Source: Phyllobates terribilis
Lineage: Eukaryota
Direction of reading: 5' to 3'
Assembly (NCBI RefSeq): GCF_046119375.1
Contig: NW_027362771.1
Span: forward strand, 532,952,001-533,016,000
Length of the DNA: 64,000 nucleotides
The translations under genes and the position numbers were made by a program. This document shows, piece by piece, positions 324-64,000 of the stretch; positions within the stretch are counted from its first letter, which is position 1, and every line of letters begins with the position of its first letter. The notes under the pieces were generated by a model that was given only the letters and a program-made list of their open reading frames with translations, made no database searches and had not been told where the DNA came from.

Positions 324-1333
324 TGACGCGCCCCCTGAGCCGTGTGTGCACATGTGTGGGTTACCCGGAGCCAGGTCTCTGGGGGTTGTAGTCTCCGTGG
401 CGGCGACCCGGTCCCGTGGCTCAGGGTGGTCAAACCAGTGGCAGTCTTTTATAGGTTTTAGGTTAATTGTCCGACTACGCCACCCGTGGATTGCGGTCAG
501 GGTGTACCGCCGCTGCGAAGCAGACCGCTGAGGCTGGTGTTGTATGCGCAGCAGAGAATGGGATGACTCCCCACGGGAGGAGTATAGCCTCAGGGCAGTG
601 AATGTGGATGATGGGAGTGATGGTGCACGAGCGCAGCAGGAATGACTCAGAGTCTTTGCAGTGCAGTTCAGGGTCTTTACTGATGATAATAAGGCAGACC
701 CTCCCGGGAGTACTGGCTAGCATAAGAGGCCTGGTCAGCCTGTGAGCAAATAGGAGTTCCCCTGGCCAGGTGGAATTGTAGGCCTCCCCGTCTGTCTGCA
801 CTCTTCCTGGCTACCTTGCTGTAAGCGAGTGGAAGTAGCCCACGTCCCTGAGTGTACCGTGTAGTGCTCACCCGTATGGCTGGTGACTTGGGGCCTTCTG
901 ATAGCCTCCACTCCTCGATGGCGGTGCTGGTCCCTTGCTCGTGACTGAGCCTCCGGGCTTCTATGGCCAGAGGACCTGGAATCCCCTGCCGGCTGGTTTC
1001 TGCTGCTGGACTTAAAGATCCTTGCAGCCTCGGACTCCGGTGTCCGGTTCTTAGATTCTTCTGCCAGGGCGAGCTATGCTCAGCTCCAGCCCCTGGTCTT
1101 CAGCTCCTGCTCCTACAGAGCTCCTTGCTGTTACTTTCCCTGTGTCTGGAACTAACTCCAGGCTCTGACTTTCTAAGCCCGCCCCAGACCCAGTTTATAA
1201 GGGCAGATTCCTCCCCTCCCAGGACTGGGCAGGAGGTGTTGCATGTTTAAGGGCTCCTGACCAGGAAACCTCCCACTTGCTCTCAGACGTAATATTTCTA
1301 TTACTGTGGTAACCAGACCCCTGGGGTGCCACA
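324..1333 (-). repeat. 3' LTR of element A
   Basis: Direct repeat of 7264-8272; adjacent to the PPT; AGTAAA poly(A)-like signal at 676-681 (minus). Confidence 0.96.
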
Positions 1334-1342
1334 TTCCCCCCT
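1334..1342 (-). promoter_or_regulatory. Polypurine tract of element A
   Basis: Minus strand reads AGGGGGGAA immediately before the TGTGGCACCCC LTR start. Confidence 0.9.
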
Positions 1343-1790
1343 AGTGAATTTTAGTACTCCGGGACTAAACACATTTTTTAAGAAAAACACAATTACAAGG
1401 TATAACAATAACATAACATATGTACAAGGACATTTTGTCTTTAAGGTCACGGCGCTTCCGTAAGCGGGTGTCCATATCACCCAAGGTGAAGTTTTAGAGT
1501 AGGGGACCTGTCCAAAGCAAACCCCAAGCGTTGGCCCTGGGCGTGGCTGCAAGGCGAAGCTAACTACTTTGGACCACATAGGGCCACGCCAGACAGGTTT
1601 TCCTTCCGTGGCCGTCTTCGCAAGAGGCACCAAGTGCAACTAGCTACAATGTAGTTCCGGTTATTCAGCGTCCATAACCTGTCAGTCCAAATAAACCTGA
1701 AGGGTAACTAGAGAAACATAATTAATAAACAGGCAACAGACATAAACGATTTTCAACATTAGCAGTTTACAGGTAAATTCACATTACAGT

Positions 1791-4700
1791 TTAGATTCTC
1801 CAGCGAGCGGGCATCTGTCCTCTAGTGTTCCTGGTGGACCTACGTAACCCACTATCTGGTTCTGCACTACAGGGTGTAGGAGGTGTTACGGGCAGGCCTG
1901 GCTGCTTTCTGCGTACTCTTTGGCTTACTAGGGGCACGGCAGGCTCACTACTAGCAGAGGGTTGATTCTCCTGGGCTGCTGGTATGGATTCTTCTGCCTC
2001 CTGGGCCGGCTGCTCTTCTGACACTACCTGTTCTTCTGTAGGCCCTTGAGGGGCTGGCTGGAGAAAGGTGAGGACGGGTACCACGATAGCGTTGTTGATT
2101 TGTGTCCAGGACTGGGGAAAGTCACCGAGTACTGTACTGATCATTTCTTCCCTTTCCTCTGCGGGTTGAGGGTTCTCTTGATCTTCGTCAGTGCTTTGCA
2201 GCTGCTCGGGACACTTTTTCAGGTGGTCTCTGGAGACAATGGCTGTGGTTTCTCCTCCATCCTTACTGATTATGCAGACTTTTGGATTATCATGGCTTGA
2301 GGGCAGTACTGTGTACGGGTCCTTCTTCCACTGGTCCTCCAACTTGTGGAGCCGCCTCTTTCTCTTCAAGACCTGTTCTCCAGGTACCAGGGGGACAGTG
2401 GGAGCATGCTGGTTATAAGTCTTCTCTTGCCTTTCTCTTGCTTGAGACAGACTTCACTCGACGCTCTCCTGTACTTTCCGATACTGCTGCTGCCGTTCTG
2501 TATCCCAGTCTGCCTCTGGCGAGGTGTCCTCAGGTGTCAGGACTCCCATATCCAGGTCAATAGGCAGCTTACCAGGTCTTGCTCTCATTAGGTAAGCCGG
2601 GGTACAGTTGGTGGAACCTACGGGGATGTGATTATACAAGTCCACCAGATCAGGCAGTTTTTCAGGCCACAGACTGCGTTCTTCCAGGGGCAACGTTTTT
2701 AGCAAGTCTATCACCACCTGGTTCATTTTCTCACATAGTCCGTTGGTCTGAGGGTGATAGGGCGTTGTTCTTATCTTCCTGCAGCCATACAGATTGCAGA
2801 ACTCTTGGAAGACCTCCGCTTCGAAGGCTGGCCCTTGGTCAGTCAACACTTGCTCCGGATACCCGTGTGGATGGCAGAAGTGCTGCTGGAAGGCTCTAGC
2901 TGCTGTTTGAGCCATTAAGTCCTTGACAGGGACCACCACCAGGAACCGGAAGTAGTGATCTACGATGGTGAGGGCGTAGACGTACCCAGATTTGCTTGGA
3001 GCCAGTTTCACATGGTCCAGGGCTACCAGTTCCAGTGGCTGCCTGGTGATGATGGGCTGCAGGGGAATCTTCTGGCTGGCGCGGTCCTTCCTTCTTAGGT
3101 TGCACGGGCCACAGTCTCTACAAAACCTCTCGATGGCTCCTCTCATGCCTACCCAGTAGAACCGTCCACGCAACAGGAACTCCAGCTTCTTCCATCCGAA
3201 GAGTCCTGCTCCGTCGTGGTATGCCTCCAGAACCATAGCCGCGTCTCGTCTTGGGACCACTACCTGCCAGGTCAGCTCATGTGTTCTAGAGTTGACCATT
3301 CTCCGGCACAGCTTCTCCTTGTAAAGAAACAGTTTACTTTTCTCCTTCCACAGTTGCTTGGTCTCCTCCGGAGCGTCTGGATCAAGACGGGCATCAGCCT
3401 GTGTCAGCATTTCCTTCACCAGACGGACTGCGGGTTCACTGTCTTGTGTCTCCGCCCAGCTGTAGTGGGGTAAGGGATTGAACGTAGCAGAGCGCCTGTC
3501 CCTTACACGGTGGGAATACAGGGTAATCCCATGACGGTGGAACGCAGGGAGCTCGACTTCTTCCAGTTCTTCTGGATCTTCCCCTACGTCCTGTAAGTTT
3601 TGGATTCTGGACAGGGCATCCGCGTTGGCATTTGAGCGTCCCGCCCGGTATTTGATGGTGAATTCATAGTTGGACAGGCGGGCCATCCATCTCTGCTCCA
3701 GCCTTGCAGTGTCCAGGTGTGTCAACGGGTTGTTATCCGTGTACACGGTGAACTTGGAAGAGGCAAGGTAATGCTTGAAACGTTCGGTCACTGCCCACAC
3801 CACTGCCAGGAACTCTAGCTTGAATGAGCTATAATTCTCAGGGTTTCTCTCTGTGGGCCGTAGTTTTCGGCTGGCGTAAGCGATTACCCGTTCTTTCCCC
3901 TGCTGGATCTGGGACAGTACGGCTCCTAGCCCGATGTTGCTCGCGAACGTGTGAAGGATAACGGGCTGGACGTAGTCAGGGTACACCAGGATTTCATCCC
4001 CCGTGAGGGCCATCTTCAGCTGGCGGAAGGACTCCTCTTCCAGCTTTTCCCACCTGAAGGGCGGCTTCTGGTTTTTGACCTTCCTGGATTGACCTATCAA
4101 GAGGTCCTGCATAGGAGCTGCCATTTTGGTGAAACCGGGAATGAATCTTCGGTAGTAGCCTACCAACCCGAGGAACTGCTGCACTTCCTTTATGCTGGAG
4201 GGTCTTGGCCAGTCTTTAATCACGGTGATCTTATCGGGGTCGGGAGCCACTCCGTCAGCACTCACCACGTGTCCCAGGTACTGTACCTTTGGTTTCAGCA
4301 GGTGACACTTGGAGGGTTTCACCTTTAGGCCGTAGCTTGCCAGGGCGTCAAACACTTCTGCCAGGTGTTTCAGATGGTCCTCGTAGGTTTTGGAATAAAC
4401 GATGACATCGTCCATGTATAACAGGACTGTCTCGAAATTCCGGTATCCCAGACAGCATTCCATCAACCGCTGGAAGGTTCCTGGTGCGTTGCAGAGCCCT
4501 AACGGCATACAGTTGAATTCGCTGAGACCCATCGGGGTGGTGAATGCAGTCTTCTCCTTGTCTGCCTCTGCTACAGGAACCTGCCAGTACCCGCTAGTAA
4601 GATCCAAAGTGGAGAAGAAGTTAGCAGATTTTAATGCAGCTAAAGATTCTTCTATTCTAGGTAATGGGTACGCATCTTTGTGTGTGATACGGTTGACCTT

Positions 4701-5918
4701 TCTGTAGTCTACACACATTCTCATTGTGTTGTCCTTCTTTTTCACTAGAACTAGTGGAGCTGCCCAGGCGCTACAGCTGTCCCTGATTACCCCAGCCTCC
4801 TTCATGTCCCGCAACATCCCCTTTGCATGCTGATAGTGTGCAGGGGGTACAGGTCGGTATCTTTCCTTTATGGGAGGATGGTCTCCTGTGGGGATGTGAT
4901 GTTCTACCCCCTTTACTCACCCGAAGTCTAGCGGGTGTTTACTAAAGACTCTTTCGTACTCCTGAACCACCCGGTAGACTCCCTGTTTTTGGTGTGAGGG
5001 AGTGGAGTCAGTACCCAAATGCAGTTGCTGACACCAGTCCTCCATTTGTTTCTTAGAGCCGTTACCTTCCTCTGGTTGAGATGGAGGCAAGGGTTCCACA
5101 GCCCTTACAGAATTTTGGTTTATGGTGAACAATTTGGCTAGCGTGGCATACCAGGGCAGGTATACTTCTCTCTCCCCGATATTTATGATGCGGACAGGCA
5201 CCCTCCCATGGCGTACATCGACCACCCCCTGTGCTGTCAAAATGGTGGGCCTACTGTCTGAGTAGACGGGCTCTACCATTGCTTGGTAGTCTCTACCCCT
5301 TAGACCAATAGCTGCCCGGCACCAGATCATCATCTCACTTTTCGGGGGCATGGCAATAGGGAACGGGTCACACATTCTCACGCTACCAATCTCACCACCA
5401 GATAGTTCCACTTGTTGCCGTTTCATCAGAGCCCGGATCTCTTTTTGGAGAACACGCTGCTGTCTGGAACTGGCGTTCTTGGCAACCTGCTGTAAAATGA
5501 GAATTATCTCTGCAAGACAATTTTCAATCACGTTAGTTCCCAAGGTTATTTTAGGGTGACTCTCATGACGGTCAATGTCCACAATATTCAGTCCTTGTGC
5601 CGCCAGTTCGACTTTACCGATTTTAATGGTCACCTCTTTGAATCCCACCTGCGGCACGGGCTGACCATTGCTGGCGATGATACTCAGGTCGTCATCTGGG
5701 TAGCGGGTTATGTCCGAGTCATTCCAATACCGCTTAAAGAGCACATAAGGGATGGTAGTTACCTGTGACCCGGTGTCTAGTAGGGCACTCATAGGAATGC
5801 CATCCAGTACCACAGGCAAGACTGGACGTCCCCCTACGTATTTATCACGCCAGTTCGATGGGCCTGATGACCGTATGCCTGGGGGTTTGCCCTCTGCTCC
5901 AGGTTGTGCCCGTTTAAA
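1791..5918 (-). pseudogene. pol: pol polyprotein (aspartic protease, RT, RNase H, integrase) with two in-frame TGA stops
   Basis: ORFs 4917-6038, 2454-4817 and 1791-2369 are one reading frame split by TGA at 4917-4919 and 2454-2456. Motifs: LLDTGSQVT (PR); LDLTSGYWQV, MPLGLCNAPGTFQR, LLYMDDV (RT); YSSFKLEFLAV, VYTDNNPL (RH); ALDHV / TDQGPAFE / NGLCEKMN (IN D,D,E). Confidence 0.95.
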
Positions 5919-6865
5919 TGACAGTACCTTGCCATATGTCCGGGTTGATTGCAGCGGCGGCAGATGGGTTGTCCGTCCTCGTTGTATCTGTCGCTGGGTC
6001 TTCCTCTGGACGATGGGATCCTCCTCTGTCGGCGCCACGGGACGTCCTCCGGTCCGGATGCCAGCTGGATCTTTCCTGGAGGAGAGACCTGTAAAGACTG
6101 CACAGTTCTGGTTAGCGCAGCAACGCTTTTGGTTAGCTCTTGGACCTGATGGTGCAGGTCTGTAGCCGGGTTGTTGTCCAAAGCCTGCGCATCAGCTCCC
6201 ACAGGCCCTGCAGACAAGGGCGCCTTCTCCTTGGGATAAGTGATAGCGGGGCGCCTGTGGGTTACAGTGCCACCTGGTGCCGGTTCTCGGAGCACCCGGA
6301 TGGCTCTGTCCTTGAACTGTGCAAAATCTAAATCAGGGTCCTGTAGGGCCATTGCCCGCAACTGGGTTCGGTGGGCATTGGACAGTAGACCCTCTATGAA
6401 TTGTTCAGTCAACAGCTTTTCTTCATTCCGCACGCTGTCAGGGTCTGCCTGCTTAATGGCTCTCAGGGCCTCCTGCAAGTTCAAAGCATAGTCCCTTATA
6501 CTTTCTTGTGCCCGTTGCTTGCACCCATAAAATCTTAGTTTGATCTCCGCTGAGGTACGGGTATCAAAAGTGTCCTTCAGACGGGCTAAGATCTCCTTCA
6601 CAGTCTCCTTGTCCCTGACTGACCAGGACTTTACTTCACGCTGGGCTGCGCCGGTTAACTGGCCTATCAATATGATCACTTTTTGTCCCTCCGTCAGGGG
6701 GTATACTTTAAATAGGCTGTACAGTCTCTCTTTAAAGTCGCTTAGGGTATGCGACTCCCCTGAGTATTGGGGCAGCCAGGCCGCTCCGGGGATGTATGGC
6801 ATTGTGAACGGCATTACTGTGGCAGTGGCCGCGCTGGTGGTAGAGGGTCCCTCCGTGTCCGACAT
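5834..6865 (-). CDS. gag: Gag (343 aa) with C-terminal CCHC zinc knuckle
   Basis: Open 343-codon ATG ORF downstream of the PBS; capsid-like FYGCKQRAQESIRDYALNLQ; knuckle CRRCNQPGHMARYC. Confidence 0.93.
   Translation of the reverse strand: MSDTEGPSTTSAATATVMPFTMPYIPGAAWLPQYSGESHTLSDFKERLYSLFKVYPLTEGQKVIILIGQLTGAAQREVKSWSVRDKETVKEILARLKDTFDTRTSAEIKLRFYGCKQRAQESIRDYALNLQEALRAIKQADPDSVRNEEKLLTEQFIEGLLSNAHRTQLRAMALQDPDLDFAQFKDRAIRVLREPAPGGTVTHRRPAITYPKEKAPLSAGPVGADAQALDNNPATDLHHQVQELTKSVAALTRTVQSLQVSPPGKIQLASGPEDVPWRRQRRIPSSRGRPSDRYNEDGQPICRRCNQPGHMARYCHLNGHNLEQRANPQAYGHQAHRTGVINT
5875..5918 (-). promoter_or_regulatory. -1 ribosomal frameshift signal gag/pol (U UUA AAC plus downstream stem-loop)
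   Basis: Slippery heptamer TTTAAAC at 5912-5918 in the correct gag phase (CAT TTA AAC); pol is in the -1 frame; CCTGG...GGGCAAACCC...CCAGG stem 8 nt downstream. Confidence 0.8.
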
Positions 6866-7240
6866 CTTCCTCCCCCCTAGTTAAGTGTGGCCTACCTTCC
6901 GTCGATCCTCTTCCGTAGGCCGCGGCTCCGCTGGTGCTGCTCCGGGCGAGGACCTTGCGTCGCGTCCTGGTGACGTCAGGGTCGCTCTCTCTCCTTCCAG
7001 GACCTTGCGTAGGGTCGGTGCGTAGGGCGGGGCTTCAGGTCTCGCGCGGTTTGGACGTCCACGCCCCTCTTCTTCCCGCGCGGCGTCCTGAAGATGGCGT
7101 CCGATGGCGGGAAAACAGCTGAAGACGGCGGGAAGCGACTGAAGATGGTGGGAAACAGCTCCGGATGGCGGGAAACTTCACTCAGGTAAGTACAAAGTCT
7201 TTTTCAGGCACGCAATACCTGTTTGTGGCTGTTTGGTCAC

Positions 7241-7259
7241 AATCCTGCCGACTACGCCA
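7241..7259 (-). promoter_or_regulatory. Primer-binding site complementary to the tRNA-Ser 3' end (element A)
   Basis: Plus strand AATCCTGCCGACTACGCCA equals the 3' 19 nt (with CCA) of vertebrate tRNA-Ser(AGA/TGA); 4 nt from the LTR. Confidence 0.92.
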
Positions 7260-7263
7260 AAGT

Positions 7264-8272
7264 TGACGCACCCCTGAGCCGTGTGTGCACGTGTGTGGGT
7301 TACCCGGAGTCGGGTCTCTGGGGGTTGTAGTCTCCGTGGTGGTGACCCGGTCCCGTGGCTCAGGGTGGTCAAACCAGTGGCAGTCTTTTATAGGTTTTAG
7401 GTTAATTGTCCGACTACGCCACCCGTGGATTGCGGTCAGGGTGTACCGCCGCTACGAGGCAGACCACTGAGGCTGGTGTTGTATGCGCAGCAGAGAATGG
7501 GATGACTCTCCACGGGAGGAGTATAGCCTCAGGGCAGTGAATGTGGATGATGGGAGTGATGGTGCACAAGCGCAGCAGGAACGACTCAGAGTCTTTGCAG
7601 TGCAGTTCAGGGTCTTTACTGATGATAATAAGGCAGACCCTCCCGGGAGTACTGGCTAGCATAAGAGGCCTGGTCAGTCTGTGAGCAAATAGGAGTTCCC
7701 CTGGCCAGGTGGAGCTGTAGGCCTCCCCGTCTGTCTGCACTCTTCCTGGCTACCTTGCTGTAAGCGAGTGGAAGTAGCCCACGTCCCTGAGTGTACCGTG
7801 TAGTGCTCACCCGTATGGCTGGTGACTTGAGGCCTTCTGATAGCCCCCGCTCCTCGATGGCGGTGCTGGTCCCTTGCTTGTGACTGAGCCTCCGGGCTTC
7901 TATGGCCAGAGGACCTGAAATCCCCTGCCGGCTGGTTTCTGCTGCTGGACTTAAAGATCCTTGCAGCCTCGGACTCCGGTGTCCGGTTCTTAGATTCTTC
8001 TGCCAGGGCGAGCTCTGCTTAGCTCCAGCCCCTGGTCTTCAGCTCCTGCTCATACAGAGCTCCTTGCTGTTACTTTCCCTGTGTCTGGAACTAACTCCAG
8101 GCTCTGACTTTCTAACCCCGCCCCAGACCCAGTTTATAAGAGCAGATTCCTCCCCTCCCAGGACTGGGCAGGAGGTGTTGCATGTTTAAGGGCTCATGAC
8201 CAGGAAACCTCCCACTTGCTCCCAGACGTAATATTTCTATTACTGTGGTAACCAGACCCCTGGGGTGCCACA
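7264..8272 (-). repeat. 5' LTR of element A
   Basis: Direct repeat of 324-1333, followed on the minus strand by the PBS; candidate TATAAA at 8133-8138 (minus). Confidence 0.96.
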
Positions 8273-13849: not shown

Positions 13850-14433
13850 CATAAATCTAGTTTTAACCCCTATTTGAACTCATCGTGTTTCTTCCCTCTA
13901 GTAACCTACCTAAGCCCAATATTACCATCTCCGTGTGTGATTCTACCATTACTCCTCAGCAGCACGCCTGCTGTGTTGGGGTTATATTTGACTCAGATCT
14001 TTCCTTCACTCCCCACATCCGATCACTCACTCGCTCCTGTCACCTGCACCTGAAACACATCTCTAGAATCCGACCTTTTCTCACCTTTGAAGCTGCAAAA
14101 ACTCTTACTGTCACTCTTATTCATTCTCATCCGGACTACTGCTACCCTCTACTGATCAGTCTCCTCTTACTAAACTCTCCCCTCTCGAATCCGTCCTGAA
14201 TGTGGCAGCCAGGATCATATTCCTGTCCAGCGATTACACTGATGTCTCTACCCTGTGCCAGCCATTGCACAGGTTACCCATCTGCTACAGAGTCCAGTAT
14301 AAACTTATCACTCTCATCCACGGTTCAGCACCATCCTACATCTCCTCCCTCATCTCAATCTACCACCCTACCTGTGCCCTCCATTCCACTAATGACCTAA
14401 GACTAACATCCTCTAGAATCTGAGCCTTCCACT
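13850..14433 (+). mobile_element. Decayed L2-clade LINE fragment (RT C-terminus), left part; host of element B
   Basis: Translates GVIFDSDLSFTPHI...ISRIRPFL...LIHSHPDYC, homologous to the L2 RT at 38431-40107; frameshifted; continues at 19211. Confidence 0.85.
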
Positions 14434-15672
14434 TGACGCGCCCCCTGGGCCGTGTGTGGGCGACTACCCGGAGCCGGGTCTCTGTGTAATGCTGGGGGTT
14501 GTAGTCTCCGTGGCGGCGACCCGGTCACGTGGCTCAGGGTGGTCAAACCAGTGGCGGATCTGTCTACTTGGTTTTTAATGTTGAAATGTCCGACTACGCC
14601 ACCCGTGGATTGCGGTCACTGAGAACCGCCGCTGCGGGGCAGACAGCTGAGGCTGATGTTGTGTGCGCAGCAGAGGGTAGTATAACTCCCCACGGGAGGA
14701 GTATAGCCTCAGGGCAGTGAGTGCAGATGATGGGGGTGATGGTGCGCGGGAGCAACAGTAATGACTCAGAGTCCAGTGATGCAGTCCAGGGTCTTTACTC
14801 ACAGTTTTTACACTCCAAGCCACTTCTGCAGGTAATGGCTGCCCACGTCGTGCTGTGCTCACCAGGTGAGAGGCTCGGCCAACTCCCAGGTACCTTTGGA
14901 ATGCTTTTCAGGACCCCCTTCGTGTGTCCTTCCTCTGGCCCGTCGTACCCCACAATTGACCACACTTCTGTCCAGCTGCCTCGGGCCTTGGCAGGCAAAC
15001 GTATGTTCTGTTTCCCTGGGCCCTATATGGTGCCTTCCTAACGGGTGTAGTGAGGAGCCGTGATACGTACAATGCCACAGCCTCCGGTTACTAGCTGAGG
15101 GTAGTTGCTCTCCTCCACTAGCTGAGGGATCCGGTTCCCTTTCTTGGCCTGACCCCCCTACTCTGGTAGCGGCGGGCGTACGGTGGCGACTGGCCGGTCC
15201 GCACCCCTGGGGTCCCTTCACTCCACTCCTGGAGCCTCCTCCGCTCCTCTCCTCTCTGACTGAACTCAGCAACTCTTCTCTTCTCCAGGCTCAGGCCTTG
15301 AGACTTGGTCTCCCTGCGGAGCAGAGCCCGTACAGAGCCCCTGCTCCCAGTCTTCCTCTCTCTCTTCTCTCTGACTCCAAGATGGTGCCCACCTTATATA
15401 CTCCTCTTTCCAGTGCACCCTGAATCTACTCTCCCCACCCACACACTACCGGGTTCCCCCTTTCTAGGTGTTCCCTCCCCCCACTCCAGCCAGGGACAGG
15501 GGCAGTTGTGCTCACTCTTGGGAGCATTGTCGCCCTGTCCACAGGAAATGTGGTGTAGTGCAAGTGGGTGTTAGGGTCCTGAGCCACACTCCATCCTTAC
15601 CTGGAAGTGAGATATCACACCTCTGGGTGAGATGCAATACCTCTATAGCGACCGAACCCTCGGGGCGCTACA
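14434..15672 (-). repeat. 3' LTR of element B
   Basis: Direct repeat of 17973-19210; AGTAAA at 14794-14799 (minus). Confidence 0.95.
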
Positions 15673-15682
15673 TTCCCCCCCT
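15673..15682 (-). promoter_or_regulatory. Polypurine tract of element B
   Basis: Minus strand AGGGGGGGAA abutting TGTAGCGCCCC; same type as the element A PPT. Confidence 0.9.
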
Positions 15683-16320
15683 GGTAAATCACAGCACGTC
15701 CGCGGGCTGCAACAGAGCAAAAGACAATTGATTTCAAGACATGCAGAATTAAAGTTGTTGTTTTTTTTGTTTGTTTTTTTAACGTTACTTGTTATAAAAC
15801 TTTTCTCTTTTCAAAAATATTATAATACTTTCTTCACATATATAGGACATTATAAAACTCTTTTCACTTGCATAAACACATTTGTCACATATAAAACATT
15901 TTTCTTCATAAACATTCTTCATGTAACACTTCTATCAACTGGTCACAGTGCACTTTGCAACCCGGTGTCCATCTTTCCATAAAGTGCAAATTTGCGAACA
16001 TGAGGGACCCGTCCCAAACCCTCAACGGAGGCCCTGGGGTGGCTGCAGGGCATAGATGATCCAGGTGTTGGACCACGTCTTCGGCCACCTCCAACGGGTT
16101 TTTGTTCTGAGGTCATAGGTTGTATTAATATAAAACCAATAGGGGGCACTTTAATAAGTGCAATTATTTACAAGGAAAGTTTTTTGGGAGATCACCGTCC
16201 TCTTCCCTATTGTCTCTATACCTACACGGGTAACTAATTAAACAGACACAAAACCGGTCAAACTTGCAAAGTTTCCTGCACCCTTTCAAGTAACTTATTT
16301 ACAGTTTCTGCTGCTGCTCT

Positions 16321-17478
16321 CTAGTAGCGGTGTCCCCCTGGTGGACGTTCCTGCTCATCAAATTCTTCAGACCCGTCCGGGTCCTCCGTGTAGCAGGATT
16401 CAGGGTAGCGCTGTTCTTCTACCCGCTGAACGTTGAGGGCGTACCAACCCCGCAGGCCTCGATGTCGGGAGTATGACACCAGATTCCACTGGAACACAAC
16501 CCGTCTCGGGTGACCCTCGGGCAGGCGACTCTCCACATCCCTCCGGTTGACAAAGATGTCTGTGTTCGTCGCCGGGTCCCGAATGAACCCCCACCCCTTC
16601 TTCTGGTGGAACCCGACCACAGTCCCGGTGACTTTGGGACCGCATGCAGCCTGGGGGTCTCGGCTGGCCCGGGTCTTTTCCTCCGCGCTCCGGGCCTGTA
16701 GCTGCTCCTGTTTTTGGCGCCGCGCCTGCCTCTCCTTTTCCAGCTGCGCCAACTCCCGGTGGCGGAATTCTCGCCTGCGGGCTGAGTCCGCCTGCGTCTC
16801 TTGCGAGAACCCCATCAGGACCTCCCCGGTCTGGTCCCACTCAAATTGGACCTCTTCATCCGGGAGCTGGGGGATGGTGATTGGCTGCGGAGCGGGCAGG
16901 AGCGGAGGAAGCGGGGCCTTGGCCTCCGCGTACGGGTCCCTCCGGTGGCAAGGGTGAACCCATCCGCGTAGTAAGGGGACCGGCTCTCCATCAGGATCGG
17001 TAATTTGACTATACAAGTCCGTGCCCAGGGGTGGTAATGTTGGGACCGGGGGCGCTAGTTGGTGGAAGGCGCCTGGGGGCATCAGGCCTTGCAACCAGGC
17101 CTGGAGCGGGTCGCTTCCGGCCGCACCCGGGATCAAGAGGCATGGTGTGGGGCGTGGTCCGGCGGCTGCGCTTGGGGCCTGGGGCCTAGGTGTAGGCGGC
17201 GGGAGTGGAGGAGGTGCAGCGACTCCCGGGACGATCGGCTCCACGGCGGGGTCCAGGGGCAGGCTAATGGCGTCAGGGCTTGTAGCAGGGGCGTCCCTCT
17301 TACCTGCTCCCATAGCAGCGCTGCTCTCGGCCTCTGGCCGTCTCTCTCTGTCCTCGGGGGCAGGCACGCTGTCAGGTGCTGGCAGCGCCGCTTGCTGCTG
17401 GGTCGCGACCCGCCGGTCCATTTCCTCTTTCCACCCCGCGATGGCCTCCCGCTGTGCCTGGACCATCCTCCGGTCCAA
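16321..17478 (-). CDS. Cold-shock-domain protein (coiled-coil / Pro-rich / charged helix / CSD / acidic tail); probably the 3' part of a longer frameshifted ORF starting near 17857
   Basis: 385 open codons; residues from 282 (nt 16420-16635) KVTGTVVGFHQKKGWGFIRDPATNTDIFVNRRDV...GLRGWYALNV align with CSDs (RNP1-like KGWGFI, RNP2-like DIFVN). The listed start is a TTG, so the true start is uncertain. Confidence 0.8.
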   Translation of the reverse strand: MDRRMVQAQREAIAGWKEEMDRRVATQQQAALPAPDSVPAPEDRERRPEAESSAAMGAGKRDAPATSPDAISLPLDPAVEPIVPGVAAPPPLPPPTPRPQAPSAAAGPRPTPCLLIPGAAGSDPLQAWLQGLMPPGAFHQLAPPVPTLPPLGTDLYSQITDPDGEPVPLLRGWVHPCHRRDPYAEAKAPLPPLLPAPQPITIPQLPDEEVQFEWDQTGEVLMGFSQETQADSARRREFRHRELAQLEKERQARRQKQEQLQARSAEEKTRASRDPQAACGPKVTGTVVGFHQKKGWGFIRDPATNTDIFVNRRDVESRLPEGHPRRVVFQWNLVSYSRHRGLRGWYALNVQRVEEQRYPESCYTEDPDGSEEFDEQERPPGGHRY

Positions 17479-17857
17479 ATCCTCCAGCCCGGAGGAATTC
17501 AGGGTCCTCTCTGGGGAGCTGGGCCATCAGCTCCGCGAGGCTGCACAGAGCCGCTTCGGCCTGCAGCAGGCCACTGGTAAGGGTCCTGGGGCTGGCGCTC
17601 CTCGCCATTTCCGGGTGTGGTCTGCCAAGACTGATCCAAACCACACCCTGCCCTTCGGTTTTCTTTCCCTTCCGCCCCTGTTGGGGGTGGTCCCGGGGCA
17701 ACCTGCTGGCAATCACTCTCAGGGGCAGCCCCCCCACGTTGATGGACATCTCTACAGCCGCACTCATGGCCGTTGGGGGTGGGCTCCATCTTTGGCGCCA
17801 TTCTGGGACCTGGCCCACGATGGGAGGTGGCTTCTTGTTGTCTTTTGGCGCGCACAT
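17372..17857 (-). CDS. Upstream ORF of element B, probable N-terminal part of the CSD protein
   Basis: ATG at 17855-17857, about 90 nt after the PBS; helical segment LTSGLLQAEAALCSLAELMAQLPREDPEFLR joins LEDLDRRMVQ of the next frame if one G is skipped at ~17488-17491. Confidence 0.45.
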   Translation of the reverse strand: MCAPKDNKKPPPIVGQVPEWRQRWSPPPTAMSAAVEMSINVGGLPLRVIASRLPRDHPQQGRKGKKTEGQGVVWISLGRPHPEMARSASPRTLTSGLLQAEAALCSLAELMAQLPREDPEFLRAGGFGPEDGPGTAGGHRGVERGNGPAGRDPAASGAAST

Positions 17858-17945
17858 AATGGCGCCCGTTCTTCTGGGGCGGGCGCCACATTCAATACAG
17901 TGAAACAGTCTCTAGGCACACAATACCCGATGATAACGGGTTGGT

Positions 17946-17968
17946 TTCGAATCCTGCCGACTACGCCA
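17946..17968 (-). promoter_or_regulatory. Primer-binding site, tRNA-Ser (element B)
   Basis: TTCGAATCCTGCCGACTACGCCA equals the 3' 23 nt of tRNA-Ser(AGA/TGA)+CCA; same AAGT spacer to the LTR as in element A. Confidence 0.93.
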
Positions 17969-17972
17969 AAGT

Positions 17973-19210
17973 TGACGCGCCCCCTGGGCCGTGTGTGGGG
18001 AATACCCGAGCCGGGTCTCTGTGTAATGTTGGGGGTTGTAGTCTCCGTGGTGGCGACCCGGTCCCGTGGCTCAGGGTGGTGAAACCAGTGGCGGATCTGT
18101 CTACTTGGTTTTTAATGTTGAAATGTCCGACTACGCCACCCGTGGATTGCGGCCACTGAGAACCGCCGCTGCGGGGCCGACCGCTGAGGCTGATGTTGTG
18201 TGCGCAGCAGAGGGTAGTATAACTCCCCACGGGAGGAGTATAGCCTCAGGGCAGTGAGTGCAGATGATGGGGGTGATGGTGCGCGGTGGTGCGTGGGAGC
18301 AACAGTAATGACTCAGAGTCCAGTGATGCAGTCCAGGGTCTTTACTCACAGTTTTTACACTCCAAGCCACTTCTGCAGGTAATGGCTGCCCACGTTGTAC
18401 TATGCTCACCAGGTGAGAGGCTCGGCCAACTCCCAGGTACCTTTGGAATGCTTTTCAGGACCCCCTTCGTGTGTCCTTCCTCTGGCCCGTCGTACCCCAC
18501 AATTGTTCACGTTTCTGTCCAGCTGCCTCGGGCCTTGGTGGGCAAACATATGTTCCGTTTCCCTGGGCCCTATATGGTGCCTTCCTAACGGGTGTAGTGA
18601 GGGGCCGTGACACGTACAATGCCACAGCCTCCGGTTACTAGCTGAGGGTAGTTGCTCTCCTCCACTAGCTGAGGGATCCGGTTCCATTTCTTGGCCTGAC
18701 CCCCCTACTCCGGGCGTACGGTGGCGACTGGCCAGTCCGCACCCCTGGGGTCCCTTCACTCCACTCCTGGAGCCTCCTCCGCTCCTCTCCTCTCTGACTG
18801 AACTCAGCAACTCTTCTCTTCTCCAGGCTCAGGCCTTGAGGCTTGGCCTCCCTGCGGAGCAGAGCCCGTACAGAGCCCCTGCTCCCAGTCTTCCTCTCTC
18901 TCTTTTCTCTGACTCCAAGATGGTGCCCACCTTATATACTCCTCTTTCCAGTGCACCCTGAATCTACTCTCCCCACCCACACACTACTGGGTTCCCGCTT
19001 TCTAGGTGTTGCCTCCCCCCACTCCAGCCAGGGACAGGGGCAGTTTTGCTCACTCTTCGTAGCATTGTCGCCCTGTCCCCCGGAAATGTGGTCTAGTGCA
19101 TGTGGGTGTTAGGGTCCTGAGCCACACTCCATCCTTACCTGGAAGTGAGATATCACACCTCTGGGTGAGATGCAATACCTCTGTAGCGACCGAACCCTCA
19201 GGGCGCTACA
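17973..19210 (-). repeat. 5' LTR of element B
   Basis: Direct repeat; candidate TATATAA at 18932-18938 (minus). Confidence 0.95.
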
Positions 19211-19317
19211 CCACTCCCTATCTCTAAACGTCTCTCGTGCTGCACCACTTCCGTGAAATGTTGAGAACATGTTGGCACTATAGAAATAAAGATTATTAGC
19301 ATTATTTATTATTATTT
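19211..19317 (+). mobile_element. L2 fragment, right part with (ATT)n tail
   Basis: Continues the 13850-14433 sequence across the TSD; ends ATGTTGGCACTATAGAAATAAAGATTATTAGCATTATTTATTATTATT. Confidence 0.8.
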
Positions 19318-57326: not shown

Positions 57327-58274
57327 CTTGGGAGCATAAAATTTAGAAAGGGGTTGTCACCTTTTTATTGAAAGTCTATAATAAAAAAAACTAGGGCATT
57401 TTGCCAATAGCAACCAATCACGGTGCAGCTTTCATTTTGCCACAGCAGTTTAAGAAATGTAAGCTGAGCTCTGATTTGTCGGTATGTGTGAGAGGGACGG
57501 CATCTCTGTGAAACAGTTTTCCTCAATGAGACCCAAAATATCAACTGTTCCCTGCAATATAACACTTGCATTGATGTAAAATCGTACAAAAAACCATATT
57601 GGAGGAGATTCATGAATGTATCCAGGGAAGGAAAACCAATCAGAACCCAGCTTTCAGTTCTGATATTGTTGTCATAAAATGAAATCTGTGTTGTGATTGG
57701 TTGCTGTGGCCAACAAAGAGAGGAGTTTTTTGACCGTTTACTAAATCTCCACTATTGTTTCTGGTACAATTTAACTTCATAGATGCAGACATATTAAAGG
57801 GGACAGCTTCTAATTTGGGTATCACTGAGCAAAACTGAGGATCAGGGAAGCGGGCCTTGTTGCCTTTAGCAACCAATCACAGCACAGCTTTCTTTTCCTA
57901 TAGTGCTCTTGAGAAATGAAATCTGATCTGTGATTGGTTGCTGTGGCTGACAGCCCGCTTCTGTTTTATTGATTGGCCCCATGTACCTTTCTGTAATCTG
58001 CTGGATGCGGTTATGCAACAGGAGCAGGAGCGTGTTACTCTCTAGTCTCCTTATCAATTCATTCAAGGACATCGGAGCTTTATAGTTGTATGTTGTAAGG
58101 AACAGAACTGGTTAACGAAAAAGGAAGTGGCCCTTGTAACACTGACTTACACATTTATTATTAGTCTTCATGTTTCCTACAGTGGAAAGTTTCTATACGT
58201 AGCTCCTCACAGAAGCCCTTCTCTTGTATGTTCCTTGCTCAGATTGTATGAGGTCTAAACAATGGGGAAGGAGT

Positions 58275-61200
58275 GCTATATAGAGCTGGCCATATACTGG
58301 CGCCTTCATTGTGGTGGGGATATGGCCCTCACAGCACTACATAGAGCTGGCCATATACTGGCGCCTTCATTGTGGTGGGGATATGGCCCCCACAGCGCTA
58401 TATAGAGCTGGCCATATACTGGCGCCTTCATTGTGGTGGGGATATGGCCCTCACAGCGGTATATAGAGCTGGCCATATACTGGCGCCTTCATTGTGGTGG
58501 GGATATGGCCCTCACAGCGCTATATAGAGCTGCCAATATACTGGCGCCTTCATTGTGGTGGGGATATGGCCCCCACAGCACTATATAGAGCTGGCCATAT
58601 ACTGGCGCCTTCATTGTGGTGGGGATATGGCCCTCACAGCGCTATATAGAGCTGGCCATATACTGGCGCCTTCATTGTGGTGGGGATATGGCCCCCACAG
58701 CACTACATAGAGCTGGCCATATACTGGCGTCTTCATTGTGGTGGGGATATGGCCCTCACAGCACTACATAGAGCTGGCCATATACTGGCGCCTTCATTGT
58801 GGTGGGGATATGGCCCTCACAGCGCTATATAGAGCTGGCCATATACTAGCGCCTTCATTGTGGTGGGGATATGGCCCCCACAGCACTACATAGAGCTGGC
58901 CATATACTGGCGCCTTCATTGTGGTGGGGATATGGCCCTCACAGCACTACATAGAGCTGGCCATATACTGGCGCCTTCATTGTGGTGGGGATATGGCCCT
59001 CACAGCGCTACATAGAGCTGCCATATACTGGCGCCTTCATTGTGGTGGGGATATGGCCCCCATATTTCTACATAGAGCTGGCCATATACTGGCGCCTTCA
59101 TTGTGGTGGGGATATGGCCCCCACAGCGCTACATAGAGCTGGCCATATACTGGCGCCTTCATTGTGGTGGGGATATGGCCCCCACAGCGCTACATAGAGC
59201 TGGCCATATACTGGCGCCTTCATTGTGGTGGGGATATGGCCCCCACAGCGCTACATAGAGCTGGCCATATACTGGCGCCTTCATTGTGGTGGGGATATGG
59301 CCCCCACAGCGCTACATAGAGCTGGCCATATACTGGCGACTTCATTGTGGTGGGGATATGGCCCTCACAGCGCTACATAGAGCTGGCCATATACTGGCGC
59401 CTTCATTGTGGTGCGGTTATGGCCCCCACATTTCTACATAGAGCTAGCCATATACTGGCGCCTTCATTGTGGTGGGGATATGGCCCTCACAGCACTACAT
59501 AGAGCTGGCCATATACTGGCGCCTTCATTGTGGTGGGGATATGGCCCCCACAGCGCTACATAGAGCTGGCCATATACTGGCGCCTTCATTGTGGTGGGGC
59601 TATGGCCCTCACAGCACTACATAGAGCTGGCCATATACTGGCGCCTTCATTGTGGTGCGGTTATGGCCCCCACATTTCTACATAGAGCTGGCCATATACT
59701 GGCGCCTTCATTGTGGTGGGGATATGGCCCTCACAGCGCTACATAGAGCTGGCCATATACTGGCACCTTCATTGTGGTGCGGTTATGGCCCCCACATTTC
59801 TACATAGAGCTGGCCATATACTGGCGCCTTCATTGTGGTGGGGATATGGCCCTCACAGCACTGTATAGAGCTGGCCATATACTGGCACCTTCATTGTGGT
59901 GGGGATATGGCCCCCACAGCGCTACATAGAGCTGGCCATATACTGGCGCCTTCATTGTGGTGCGGTTATGGCCCCCACATTTCTACATAGAGCTGGCCAT
60001 ATACTGGCACCTTCATTGTGGTGCGGTTATGGCCCCCACATTTCTACATAGAGCTGGCCATATACTGGCGCCTTCATTGTGGTGGGGATATGGCCCCCAC
60101 AGCGCTATATAGAGCTGGCCATATACTGGCGCCTTCATTGTGGTGGGGATATGGCCCTCAGAGCGCTATATAGAGCTGGCCATATACTGGCGCCTTCATT
60201 GTGGTGGGGATATGGCCCCCACAGCACTACATAGAGCTGGCCATATACTGGCGCCTTCATTGTGGTGGGGATATGGCCCTCACAGCGCTACATAGAGCTG
60301 GCCATATACTGACGCCTTCATTGTGGTGGGGATATGGCCCCCACATTTCTACATAGAGCTGGCCATATACTGGCGCCTTCATTGTGGTGGGGATATGGCC
60401 CTCACAGCACTGTATAGAGCTGGCCATATACTGGCACCTTCATTGTGGTGGGGATATGGCCCCCACAGCGCTACATAGAGCTGGCCATATACTGGCGCCT
60501 TCATTGTGGTGCGGTTATGGCCCCCACATTTCTACATAGAGCTGGCCATATACTGGCGCCTTCATTGTGGTGGGGATATGGCCCTCACAGCGCTACATAG
60601 AGCTGGCCATATACTGGCGACTTCATTGTGGTGGGGATATGGCCCTCACAGCGCTACATAGAGCTGGCCATATACTGGCGCCTTCATTGTGGTGCGGTTA
60701 TGGCCCCCACATTTCTACATAGAGCTGGCCATATACTGGCGCCTTCGTTGTGGTGGGGATATGGCCCTCACAGCACTGTATAGAGCTGGCCATATACTGG
60801 CACCTTCATTGTGGTGGGGATATGGCCCTCACAGCGCTACATAGAGCTGGCCATATACTGGCGCCTTCATTGTGGTGGGGATATGGCCCTCACAGCGCTA
60901 CATAGAGCTGGCCATATACTGGCGCCTTCATTGTGGTGGGGATATGGCCCCCACAGCGCTACATAGAGCTGGCCATATACTGGCGCCTTCATTGTGGTGG
61001 GGATATGGCCCCCACAGCGCTACATAGAGCTGGCCATATACTGGCGCCTTCATTGTGGTGGGGATATGGCCCCCACAGCGCTACATAGAGCTGGCCATAT
61101 ACTGGCGCCTTCATTGTGGTGGGGATATGGCCCTCACAGCGCTACATAGAGCTGGCCATATACTGGCGCCTTCATTGTGGTGCGGTTATGGCCCCCACAT

Positions 61201-64000
61201 TTCTACATAGAGCTAGCCATATACTGGCGCCTTCATTGTGGTGGGGATATGGCCCTCACAGCACTACATAGAGCTGGCCATATACTGGCGCCTTCATTGT
61301 GGTGGGGATATGGCCCCCACAGCGCTACATAGAGCTGGCCATATACTGGCGCCTTCATTGTGGTGGGGCTATGGCCCTCACAGCACTACATAGAGCTGGC
61401 CATATACTGGCGCCTTCATTGTGGTGCGGTTATGGCCCCCACATTTCTACATAGAGCTGGCCATATACTGGCGCCTTCATTGTGGTGGGGATATGGCCCT
61501 CACAGCACTGTATAGAGCTGGCCATATACTGGCACCTTCATTGTGGTGGGGATATGGCCCCCACAGCGCTACATAGAGCTGGCCATATACTGGCGCCTTC
61601 ATTGTGGTGCGGTTATGGCCCCCACATTTCTACATAGAGCTGGCCATATACTGGCGCCTTCATTGTGGTGGGGATATGGCCCCCACAGCACTACATAGAG
61701 CTGGCCATATACTGGCGCCTTCATTGTGGTGGGGATATGGCCCTCACAGCGCTACATAGAGCTGGCCATATACTGGCGCCTTCATTGTGGTGGGGATATG
61801 GCCCTCACAGCACTGTATAGAGCTGGCCATATACTGGCACCTTCATTGTGGTGGGGATATGGCCCCCACAGCGCTACATAGAGCTGGCCATATACTGGTG
61901 CCTTCATTGTGGTGCGGTTATGGCCCCCACATTTCTACATAGAGCTGGCCATATACTGGCACCTTCATTGTGGTGCGGTTATGGCCCCCACATTTCTACA
62001 TAGAGCTGGCCATATACTGGCGCCTTCATTGTGGTGGGGATATGGCCCTCACAGCACTGTATAGAGCTGGCCATATACTGGCGCCTTCATTGTGGTGGGG
62101 ATATGGCCCTCACAGCACTGTATAGAGCTGGCCATATACTGGCACCTTCATTGTGGTGGGGATATGGCCCTCACAGCGCTACATAGAGCTGGCCATATAC
62201 TGGCGCCTTCATTGTGGTGGGGATATGGCCCTCACAGCGCTACATAGAGCTGGCCATATACTGGCGCCTTCATTGTGGTGGGGATATGGCCCCCACAGCG
62301 CTACATAGAGCTGGCCATATACTGGCGCCTTCATTGTGGTGGGGATATGGCCCCCACAGCGCTACATAGAGCTGGCCATATACTGGCGCCTTCATTGTGG
62401 TGGGGATATGGCCCTCACAGCGCTACATAGAGCTGGCCATATACTGGCGTCTTCATTGTGGTGCGGTTATGGCCCCCACATTTCTACATAGAGCTAGCCA
62501 TATACTGGCGCCTTCATTGTGGTGGGGATACGGCCCTCACAGCACTACATAGAGCTGGCCATATACTAGCGCCTTCATTGTGGTGGGGATATGGCCCCCA
62601 CAGCGCTACATAGAGCTGGCCATATACTGGCGCCTTCATTGTGGTGGGGCTATGGCCCTCACAGCACTACATAGAGCTGGCCATATACTGGCGCCTTCAT
62701 TGTGGTGCGGTTATGGCCCCCACATTTCTACATAGAGCTGGCCATATACTGGCGCCTTCATTGTGGTGGGGATATGGCCCTCACAGCACTGTATAGAGCT
62801 GGCCATATACTGGCGCCTTCATTGTGGTGGGGATATGGCCCCCACAGCGCTACATAGAGCTGGCCATATACTGGCGCCTTCATTGTGGTGGGGATATGGC
62901 CCTCACAGCGCTACATAGAGCTGGCCATATACTGGCGCCTTCATTGTGGTGGGGATATGGCCCTCACAGCGCTACATAGAGCTGGCCATATACTGGCACC
63001 TTCATTGTGGTGGGGATATGGCCCTCACAGCGCTACATAGAGCTGGCCATATACTGGCACCTTCATTGTGGTGGGGATATGGCCCCCACAGCACTACATA
63101 GAGCTGGCCATATACTGGCGCCTTCATTGTGGTGGGGATATGGCCCTCACAGCGCTACATAGAGCTGGCCATATACTGGCGCCTTCATTGTGGTGCGGTT
63201 ATGGCCCCCACAGCGCTACATAGAGCTGGCCATATACTGGCGCCTTCATTGTGGTGGGGATATGGCCCTCACAGCGCTACATAGAGCTGGCCATATACTG
63301 GTGCCTTCATTGTGGTGGGGATATGGCCCTCACAGCGCTACATAGAGCTGGCCATATACTGGCGCCTTCATTGTGGTGCGGTTATGGCCCCCACATTTCT
63401 ACATAGAGCTGGCGATATACTGGCGCCTTCATTGTGGTGGGGATATGGCCCCCACATTTCTACATAGAGCTGGCCATATACTGTCACCTTCATTGTGGTG
63501 CGGTTATGGCCCCCACATTTCTACATAGAGCTGGCCATATACTGGCACCTTCATTGTGGTGGGGATATGGCCCCCACATTTCTACATAGAGCTGGCCATA
63601 TACTGTCACCTTCATTGTGGTGCAGTTATGGCCCCCACATTTCTACATAGAGCTGGCCATATACTGGCACCTTCATTGTGGTGGGGATATGGCCCTCACA
63701 GCGCTACATAGAGCTGGCCATATACTGTCACCTTCATTGTGGTGCGGTTATGGCCCCCACATTTCTACATAGAGCTGGCCATATACTGGCACCTTCATTG
63801 TGGTGGGGATATGGCCCCCACATTTCTACATAGAGCTGGCCATATACTGGCGCCTTCATTGTGGTGGGGATATGGCCCCCACATTTCTACATAGAGCTGG
63901 CCATATACTGGCACCTTCATTGTGGTGGGGATATGGCCCTCACAGCGCTACATAGAGCTGGCCATATACTGGCGCCTTCATTGTGGTGGGGATATGGCCC
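58275..64000. repeat. 61-bp tandem satellite (>90 units), presumably intronic in ZMIZ2, running off the window
   Basis: Unit TACATAGAGCTGGCCATATACTGGCGCCTTCATTGTGGTGGGGATATGGCCCTCACAGCAC, period 61. Confidence 0.98.

Follow-up and report, generated by a model that had tools for sequence, protein, structure and literature searches.

The window analysed here, a stretch of 64,000 nucleotides of Phyllobates terribilis DNA, raises the question of what a cold-shock domain (CSD) protein does as the only gene of an LTR retroelement. The element concerned (B) shares the window with a Gypsy element (A), and the following features were assigned:

324..8272, minus strand: element A, Gypsy, with PNMA-like gag with zinc knuckle, protease, RT, RNase H and integrase, and a 4-bp target site duplication (TSD)
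14434-19210, minus strand: element B, with LTR pair, primer site and polypurine tract
14429..14433, unstranded: TSD CCACT, left copy
14434..15672, minus strand: 3' LTR of element B, 95.3% identical to the 5' LTR
15673..15682, minus strand: polypurine tract of the type common to element A and young helpers
16321..17466, minus strand: 3' part of the gene, a 381-aa ORF with Pro/Ala-rich disordered linker, long charged helix, CSD and acidic tail
16423..16629, minus strand: cold-shock domain (PF00313), Y-box type, locally damaged at about 16470-16500 in the window copy
16657..16800 (approximate limits), minus strand: predicted helix of 45-48 aa directly before the CSD, conserved
17372..17857, minus strand: 5' part of the gene, frame broken near 17490, inside a predicted helix
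17914..18346, minus strand: U5, primer site and start of the leader, 78% over 446 columns against 7206-7620 of element A
17951..17968, minus strand: primer-binding site for tRNA-Ser (AGA/TGA), 18 nt, complementary to the tRNA 3' end
17973..19210, minus strand: 5' LTR of element B
19211..19215, unstranded: TSD CCACT, right copy

With its LTR pair (TG...CA ends), primer site, polypurine tract and target duplication, element B, a member of family 1, is the non-autonomous LTR element that it was first taken for: no reverse transcriptase or integrase lies inside, and searches of the 2.3-kb interior with gag, protease and pol of element A gave no match between the LTRs. The long ORF did not hold up as a separate gene. 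Comparison with unbroken copies (6/6) identified the ORFs of 161 and 381 aa as one gene with a frameshift near 17490; the helix in its 5' part has a heptad-like pattern by eye. The stretch RRVVFQWNLVSY is damage of the window copy, and sibling copies hold a conserved L-x-x-G-D-x-V motif there. As the gene is frameshifted and the CSD locally damaged, element B is a decaying member of a larger family.

The primer was assigned from 12 fetched primer-site matches, four of which are tRNA-Ser genes (the other eight had no tRNA call); among four loci scanned for tRNAs, one had a tRNA-Ala call and three had none. A second primer-site-like motif lies at 18122-18134 within U5, about 170 nt upstream of the true site. 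It has the same place in helper and family-1 LTRs, is conserved in 7/7 aligned elements, and might serve in initiation or in pairing with the tRNA. Far from both elements, positions 58167-64000 hold a 61-bp satellite array (at least 91 overlapping windows at 93-98% identity).

In a Pfam profile search, PF00313 matched residues 280-348 of the 381-aa ORF. For the whole ORF the score was just below the curated cut-off of 27 bits (E 5.1e-6, 26.7 bits), the C-terminal 119 aa gave E 5.3e-7 and 29.8 bits, and all five sibling ORFs examined reached 27.9-36.9 bits. A sequence search of the PDB with the window CSD returned YBX1/YBX2 as best matches, at about 30-35% identity. Modelling of the C-terminal part of a young sibling copy predicted a five-strand OB barrel (pLDDT 70-86 over the domain), for which Foldseek listed CspA and YBX1/2 as top matches (TM 0.88 against CspA, by target length). 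The full-protein model was mostly disordered (mean pLDDT 47, domain mostly 59-87), its helices spanning 119-159 and 354-401 and its barrel 410-480; in the ESM Atlas only generic CSD clusters were matched, with scores of 0.76. We also built a profile from 17 element CSDs, which scored 54-55 bits with YBX1/2, at most 41 with bacterial Csp and 22 with Lin28. Because its match to YBX1 is gapless over 71 positions at 55 bits, the longer loop included, a Y-box origin of the domain is most likely. The original prediction of a terminal CSD with roughly 30% identity to Y-box proteins and their loop insertion was thus borne out.

The claim that the RNP aromatic residues are kept was right in part. The RNP1 Phe is present in 16/17 and the RNP2 Phe/Tyr in 17/17 element CSDs, but the beta-1 Trp of YBX is missing from all 17 and the RNP2 His from 16/17; strand 5 has gained an aromatic residue in 17/17. 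We take the RNP1/RNP2 residues, the beta-1 Trp and the RNP2 His to have their usual roles in a CSD. With Trp and His lost, the predicted binding specificity may differ from that of YB-1, and DNA binding may be possible. The domain, preceded by an Ala/Pro-rich segment and accompanied by charged stretches, is a predicted single-stranded nucleic-acid binder that may protect element RNA. Its proposed use as a nucleocapsid substitute was weakened, since the helper Gag has its own zinc knuckle (a weak zf-CCHC match) and the family protein lacks Gag or capsid homology: HHalign against helper Gag gave a probability of 0.1 with shallow alignments, and there was neither a capsid Pfam match nor a predicted capsid-like fold. 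Searches of the family CSD protein for a zinc knuckle found none, and no particle-targeting domain was seen in the predicted protein.

To place element B in its family, we searched the 10.6-Gb genome with the CSD and obtained 36,472 first-look candidates, which are not copy numbers; the 150 that were scored all had at least 71% identity. The LTR-end and primer motif common to the helper and family 1 had 31,774 exact matches (control 0). Among the first 30 of these by position on contig 1, 20 led to a CSD-family gene, 8 to gag and 2 to neither, so that satellites outnumber the helper by about 20 to 8 in this small sample (n=30). Extrapolation from these few loci at one chromosome end suggests some 20,000 family-1 copies as an order of magnitude, with ten thousand probably exceeded; at about 4.8 kb each, this would amount to tens of megabases or more of the genome.

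Twenty copies chosen for long frames have one common ORF of about 510 aa. A younger subfamily (Y) emerged from the Pfam search: here the ORFs measure about 600 aa, the CSD shows about 50% identity with that of element B, and the LTRs are 99.4-100% identical in 17/17 copies and fully identical in seven. Many family copies combine intact frames of 500-600 aa with 99-100% identical LTRs. Contigs of four sequencing runs (two guessed to be RNA, two of uncertain kind) span a whole young element, and carry no weight for or against expression. After 16 of 41 analysed rows that lacked a clean LTR pair, clear ends or a CSD had been dropped, 25 delimited elements remained, 24 of them 4.7-5.2 kb long. Matches to element A proteins, RT and integrase included, were absent from all 25. 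The TSD was 4 bp in 19, 5 bp in two and absent in four; the 5-bp length first described therefore holds for the window copy (CCACT), but the family duplication is 4 bp. The LTR-flanked copies sought across the genome thus proved to be a very large family, most of its delimited members with a TSD.

Short, internally deleted forms (L073, L060, L075; for example L111:7700-10000) consist of LTRs and a CSD-coding remnant only and occur in dozens of copies. In both lineages described here, CSD elements also form head-to-tail arrays with about 3.6-kb spacing that apparently share LTRs (examples at G000:C1:582.555-582.562 Mb, C3:355.46-355.47 Mb and C8:343.49 Mb). At the insertion sites TG or CA often stands directly outside the 4-bp TSD, which suggests a preference for an alternating purine-pyrimidine target. 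Several copies were found inserted in tandem repeats.

The second lineage (family 2), likewise young, carries the domain in a different LTR frame. Its LTRs of about 1,030 bp are unrelated to those of family 1 or A apart from the primer site, and 9/20 fetched loci had a 4-bp TSD and LTR identities of 96.4-99.7%. Counted from the first interior Met, its reading frame measures about 590 aa; the N-terminus of the protein is very basic (net +41 over 150 aa), and the CSD alone is common to the proteins of families 1 and 2. The family-2 LTR-end and primer motif had 470 matches; 30/30 sampled led to a family-2 interior and none to gag, and a search of the genome for a family-2 helper found only older family-2 LTRs. 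Deleted family-2 copies (L195-L197) have spread as well.

Leaders and antisense strands differed between the lineages. CGCCAT(C/T) repeats number 3-8 per 350 nt in helper leaders and 4-6 in young satellites (for example L252:2415-2760), against 0-1 in copies of B type and none in family 2; presumably they resemble YY1 sites or packaging repeats. CATC/CGCCAT repeats were rejected as a general CSD target, as their enrichment covers family-1 and helper leaders and not family 2. Antisense ORFs of 279-465 aa were present in 6/7 family-1 and 0/2 family-2 copies. We took them as by-products rather than genes; a low antisense ratio over the CSD appeared only in the frame that shares third positions.

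The genome also holds older, low-copy CSD lineages. Three diverged copies (L061, L156, L157) form a local cluster at G000:C4:791.48-791.52 Mb with 100, 68 and 48% identity to the first and no other loci at such similarity; unlike other element CSDs, theirs hold the RNP2 His. An apparently single-copy, diverged element-type CSD ORF (L148:4899-5681, G000:C9:374.39 Mb) has no LTR pair nearby and a next best match of 53%. It groups most closely with the N-terminal part of a Ranitomeya imitator protein (P0028; sister rows, 98/87) and may represent either an orthologous insertion of old age or a gene that has been domesticated.

Comparison of substitution rates across copies had been named as a test of whether the gene is more than cargo. 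Pairwise differences over the CSD fall mainly on third codon positions. For copies picked for open frames and good CSD scores, in pairs that share history and are not independent, CSD dN/dS was 0.07-0.38 in 13/15 family-1 pairs (two saturated; all P <=0.0008) and 0.06-0.18 in 6/8 family-2 pairs (two near-identical pairs uninformative). The other two sense frames gave ratios of 1.1-4.1 in 7/7 pairs. Purifying selection on the CSD is thus specific to its frame, in family 1 as in family 2. Within the family protein the N-terminal helix is also constrained, as is the family-1 helix before the CSD (dN/dS 0.07-0.43); the upstream region is under weaker constraint (0.33-0.67) and the family-1 C-terminal tail is often neutral. 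These values speak against neutral evolution of the gene, in line with the long-term, element-encoded factor that had been proposed. LTR elements often carry host fragments and the window copy itself is broken, as one would expect of a captured YBX fragment that hitch-hikes as a neutral passenger. Given selection on one frame in both lineages, and frames that stay open in young copies at such low identity to YBX, we consider this extremely improbable; it is refuted already, unless unbiased sampling of copies erases the dN/dS signal.

A selected CSD protein leaves packaging, reverse transcription and integration to be supplied by another element, and a helper Gypsy had been invoked for this. 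Element A is inserted into a tandem repeat of about 30 bp. Its protease, pol and pol tail (window 1791-6865) lie in separate ORFs, whereas young relatives have a single frame of about 1,400 aa; the window copy of element A is thus also broken. Eight young gag-type copies were fetched: their LTRs are 99.1-100% identical (8/8), pol is present in seven, a 4-bp TSD was seen by eye in 7/8, and a CSD match was found in none. The element A family and family 1 agree in their LTR termini, polypurine tract and primer site, in about 300 nt of U5, and in the leader nearly up to the start codon. Moreover, a segment of about 430 nt in both LTRs of one family-1 copy (L033) has 86-92% identity with the element A LTR and 54-64% with that of B, and is flanked by parts 87-98% identical to B. 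This mosaic, seen in one of three copies profiled, is the pattern expected from template switching between RNAs that would have been co-packaged, and could also stem from ectopic recombination in an ancestral copy. On the basis of the common cis-elements, the matching TSD length and the A-type sequence in both L033 LTRs, A-type Gypsy elements are likely to be the helper of family 1. L243 was discarded as a helper-satellite recombinant: its two LTRs differ, which points to a nested or ectopic junction.

The same loci bear on the origin of the gene. It might have begun as an accessory ORF of an extinct or unsampled autonomous Gypsy lineage, with the present elements as deletion derivatives. One element-type CSD clade is found in two LTR frames that are unrelated to each other, as are the flanking parts of the protein, which would fit such a source, and 2.4 kb upstream of an old copy (L153) there is a pol in the same orientation. 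Yet none of the 25 delimited elements contains pol, all 30 sampled family-2 primer sites lead to a family-2 interior, the eight gag-type copies are without a CSD, and no pol was found within 8 kb upstream of four old family-2 relatives (L168-L170, L173). We therefore rate this origin as very unlikely.

We propose that the family protein acts mainly on its own encoding RNA, as a coat or chaperone, and that packaging, reverse transcription and integration come from A-type helpers; we give this reading an even chance. Family RNA would be transcribed from the LTR and then translated in the germ line, and the product would bind this RNA through its CSD and basic segments. As a coat or chaperone, it would stabilise the bound RNA or keep it stored in an mRNP like those of Y-box proteins, and would favour its delivery to helper Gag particles in the competition for them. 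Inside these particles, tRNA-Ser-primed reverse transcription would take place, and the helper integrase would insert the cDNA with a 4-bp TSD. Co-packaging, germ-line translation, RNA binding, the cis preference and the step that is helped are inferred parts of this scheme. Action in cis is favoured because benefits in trans are open to cheaters and because host YB-1, according to passages of PMC6040738, stabilises HIV RNA and aids particle production of MLV and MMTV. Lasting purifying selection in a passenger would be easiest to keep if its product favours its own template. The spread of deleted derivatives (L073 type and L195-L197) indicates that propagation does not strictly depend on a complete protein in cis, which argues that it can be dispensed with or supplied in trans.

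Spreading derivatives would also be expected if the protein worked in trans against silencing, shielding element and helper RNA from piRNA/siRNA or blocking small-RNA processing in the manner of Lin28, so that the passenger repays its helper with protection. CSD-family and gag-type copies are both young, and Gypsy RNA is high in ova of the strawberry poison frog (passages of PMC6278860). A benefit of this kind, however, is open to cheaters and would fit poorly with dN/dS near 0.1 in two lineages, and the CSD is of Y-box and not of Lin28 type, with no zinc knuckle found in the protein; we regard a role against silencing as unlikely. A function inside helper particles, where the protein would work on single-stranded cDNA and either chaperone strand transfer or aid integration, would agree with the binding of ssDNA by CSDs (PDB titles), with YB-1 being found with retroviral integrases (passages of PMC6040738), and with the LTR mosaics and LTR-sharing tandem arrays of the family. 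This appears quite unlikely to us, as the helper Gag brings its own zinc knuckle, the TSD length equals that of the helper, and the protein shows no particle-targeting domain. A host-derived RNA-binding protein under strong selection, in a lineage that outnumbers its helper in the small sample above, points to an unrecognised step in the element's life cycle, such as RNA protection, storage or particle entry, at which a factor of its own would be of benefit.

Related CSDs extend beyond Phyllobates. A full HMMER search returned, by score, mainly multi-CSD proteins. We looked up 20 of the 150 listed matches, 17 with a single matched stretch and three with two. The frog-named ones belong to Phyllobates terribilis, Ranitomeya imitator (2), R. 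variabilis, Anomaloglossus baeobatrachus (3) and Bufo bufo, with a ninth frog protein from Engystomops pustulosus; the remainder are eight Logan proteins and three ENA proteins with two CSDs. Related CSDs are thus present in proteins of four other frog genera (Ranitomeya, Anomaloglossus, Bufo, Engystomops). These genera span several hyloid families, with splits tens of millions of years old. Word-indexed protein searches had yielded nothing or only two chimeric Phyllobates gene models, blanks that reflect low sensitivity, as the relatives in other frogs were found by the full HMMER search. In a tree of 37 domains (unrooted, with a long-branch caveat), 31 element-type CSDs split from six host-like ones at 100/99; together with the low identity to YBX, this supports the view that the domain is too divergent for a recent YBX retrocopy. 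The proteins of Ranitomeya and Anomaloglossus belong to the clade of family 1 (100/99). One Anomaloglossus protein carries WRSRQD, a translation of the primer site, upstream of its CSD. The cross-anuran comparison that had been suggested therefore found related CSD proteins in all four genera, and the LTR context is supported in Anomaloglossus.

A host YBX gene was sought in the Phyllobates genome and not recovered, so the host side of the trees is represented either by a degenerate YBX-like pseudogene (93/89, unstarred) or by Y-box-like proteins from databases. The top genome matches of PF00313 (L051-L058) were rejected as family members, since we take them to be a CSDE1/Unr retrocopy and exons. 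The intronless CSDE1/Unr-like retrocopy at G000:C1:734.43-734.45 Mb (L051-L056, L100) is partly duplicated and split by non-LTR elements. Four public gene models (P0004, P0005, P0028, P0049) contain pieces of the element ORF fused to foreign coding sequence or are named Y-box proteins; the fusion partners are presumably a Harbinger-like nuclease, an R3H-domain protein and an astacin-like protease. Family ORFs are already mis-annotated as host genes, for example the Bufo 'Y-box-binding protein 2-A-like'.

Taken together, these data lead us to a tentative proposal, held at somewhat less than even confidence: hyloid frogs may harbour an old, undescribed class of satellite retrotransposons in which a Y-box-derived RNA-binding protein replaced gag-pol. 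The module would have been swapped between unrelated LTR frames and helpers, would let satellites outnumber their Gypsy helpers by coating RNA in the way maternal mRNA is masked, and would be a real contributor to genome gigantism in poison frogs. The original prediction knew of no described vertebrate LTR family with such a layout, without ruling one out. In the literature covered (Repbase, Dfam and most subscription papers outside its scope), no non-autonomous LTR lineage with a selected CSD protein as sole gene was found, but capture of a CSD by LTR elements is in itself known from birds (passages of PMC12287698). The main texts of two poison-frog papers on transposable elements (10.1101/2023.11.06.565769, PMC6278860) speak of neither cold shock nor non-autonomous elements, and a term search of PMC6338049 gave no mention of cold-shock domains. 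According to passages of the poison-frog genome paper, 39% of the assembly consists of unclassified repeats (10.1101/2023.11.06.565769), which fits an undescribed family.

Compared with known systems, the frog family combines familiar and unfamiliar traits. Non-autonomous LTR elements are normally non-coding or gag-only; besides the four groups below they include LARD, TR-GAG, BARE-2 and mammalian MaLR, and TR-GAG, BARE-2 and MaLR keep gag-derived ORFs. The frog ORF differs from TR-GAG and MaLR in being non-Gag and host-derived. With TRIM, Cassandra, Helenus and Ajax, as described in passages of PMC10886601, the family has in common the LTR pair, primer site and polypurine tract as well as a partner with similar termini that acts in trans. 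TRIMs are shorter than 1 kb and encode no mobilisation protein, whereas the frog elements measure 4.7-5.2 kb and carry an ORF of 500-600 aa.

With YBX1/YBX2 (FRGY2) the domain shares the gapless match with its longer loop, the Ala/Pro-rich segment before the CSD and the charged flanks (YB-1 layout from passages of PMC6040738). It is set apart by its low identity, the loss of the beta-1 Trp and RNP2 His, the aromatic residue gained in strand 5, and non-homologous flanks with long helices. Functional analogies, with no homology claimed, are offered by hepatitis delta virus, a satellite whose sole product is an RNA-binding protein of its own and which takes its coat from the helper, and by LINE-1 ORF1p, which joins a coiled coil to an RNA-binding domain and shows cis preference.

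Captured host domains such as MBD, DNMT and AlkB are, as far as is known, add-ons to elements that keep gag-pol, whereas the captured domain in frogs replaces gag-pol. MBD is reported from arthropod Copia (PMC6673714), DNMT from retrotransposons (PMC5890265) and AlkB from orchid Ty3/Gypsy elements (PMC9289625), and the likeness is a host domain fixed in an LTR lineage, where it is presumably useful. A close likeness is with birds, in which 46 ERVs, LTR retroelements as well, carry PF00313 in varying positions after several independent captures, and for which the authors suggest an adaptive role (Mol Biol Evol 2025; passages of PMC12287698, in which no selection test is reported). Unlike the bird ERVs, the frog elements are non-autonomous and of Gypsy type, have the CSD as their sole gene, reach a very high copy number and hold a diverged clade of their own under purifying selection. 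The frog family provides a direct test of the reasons for which LTR elements have captured CSDs repeatedly.
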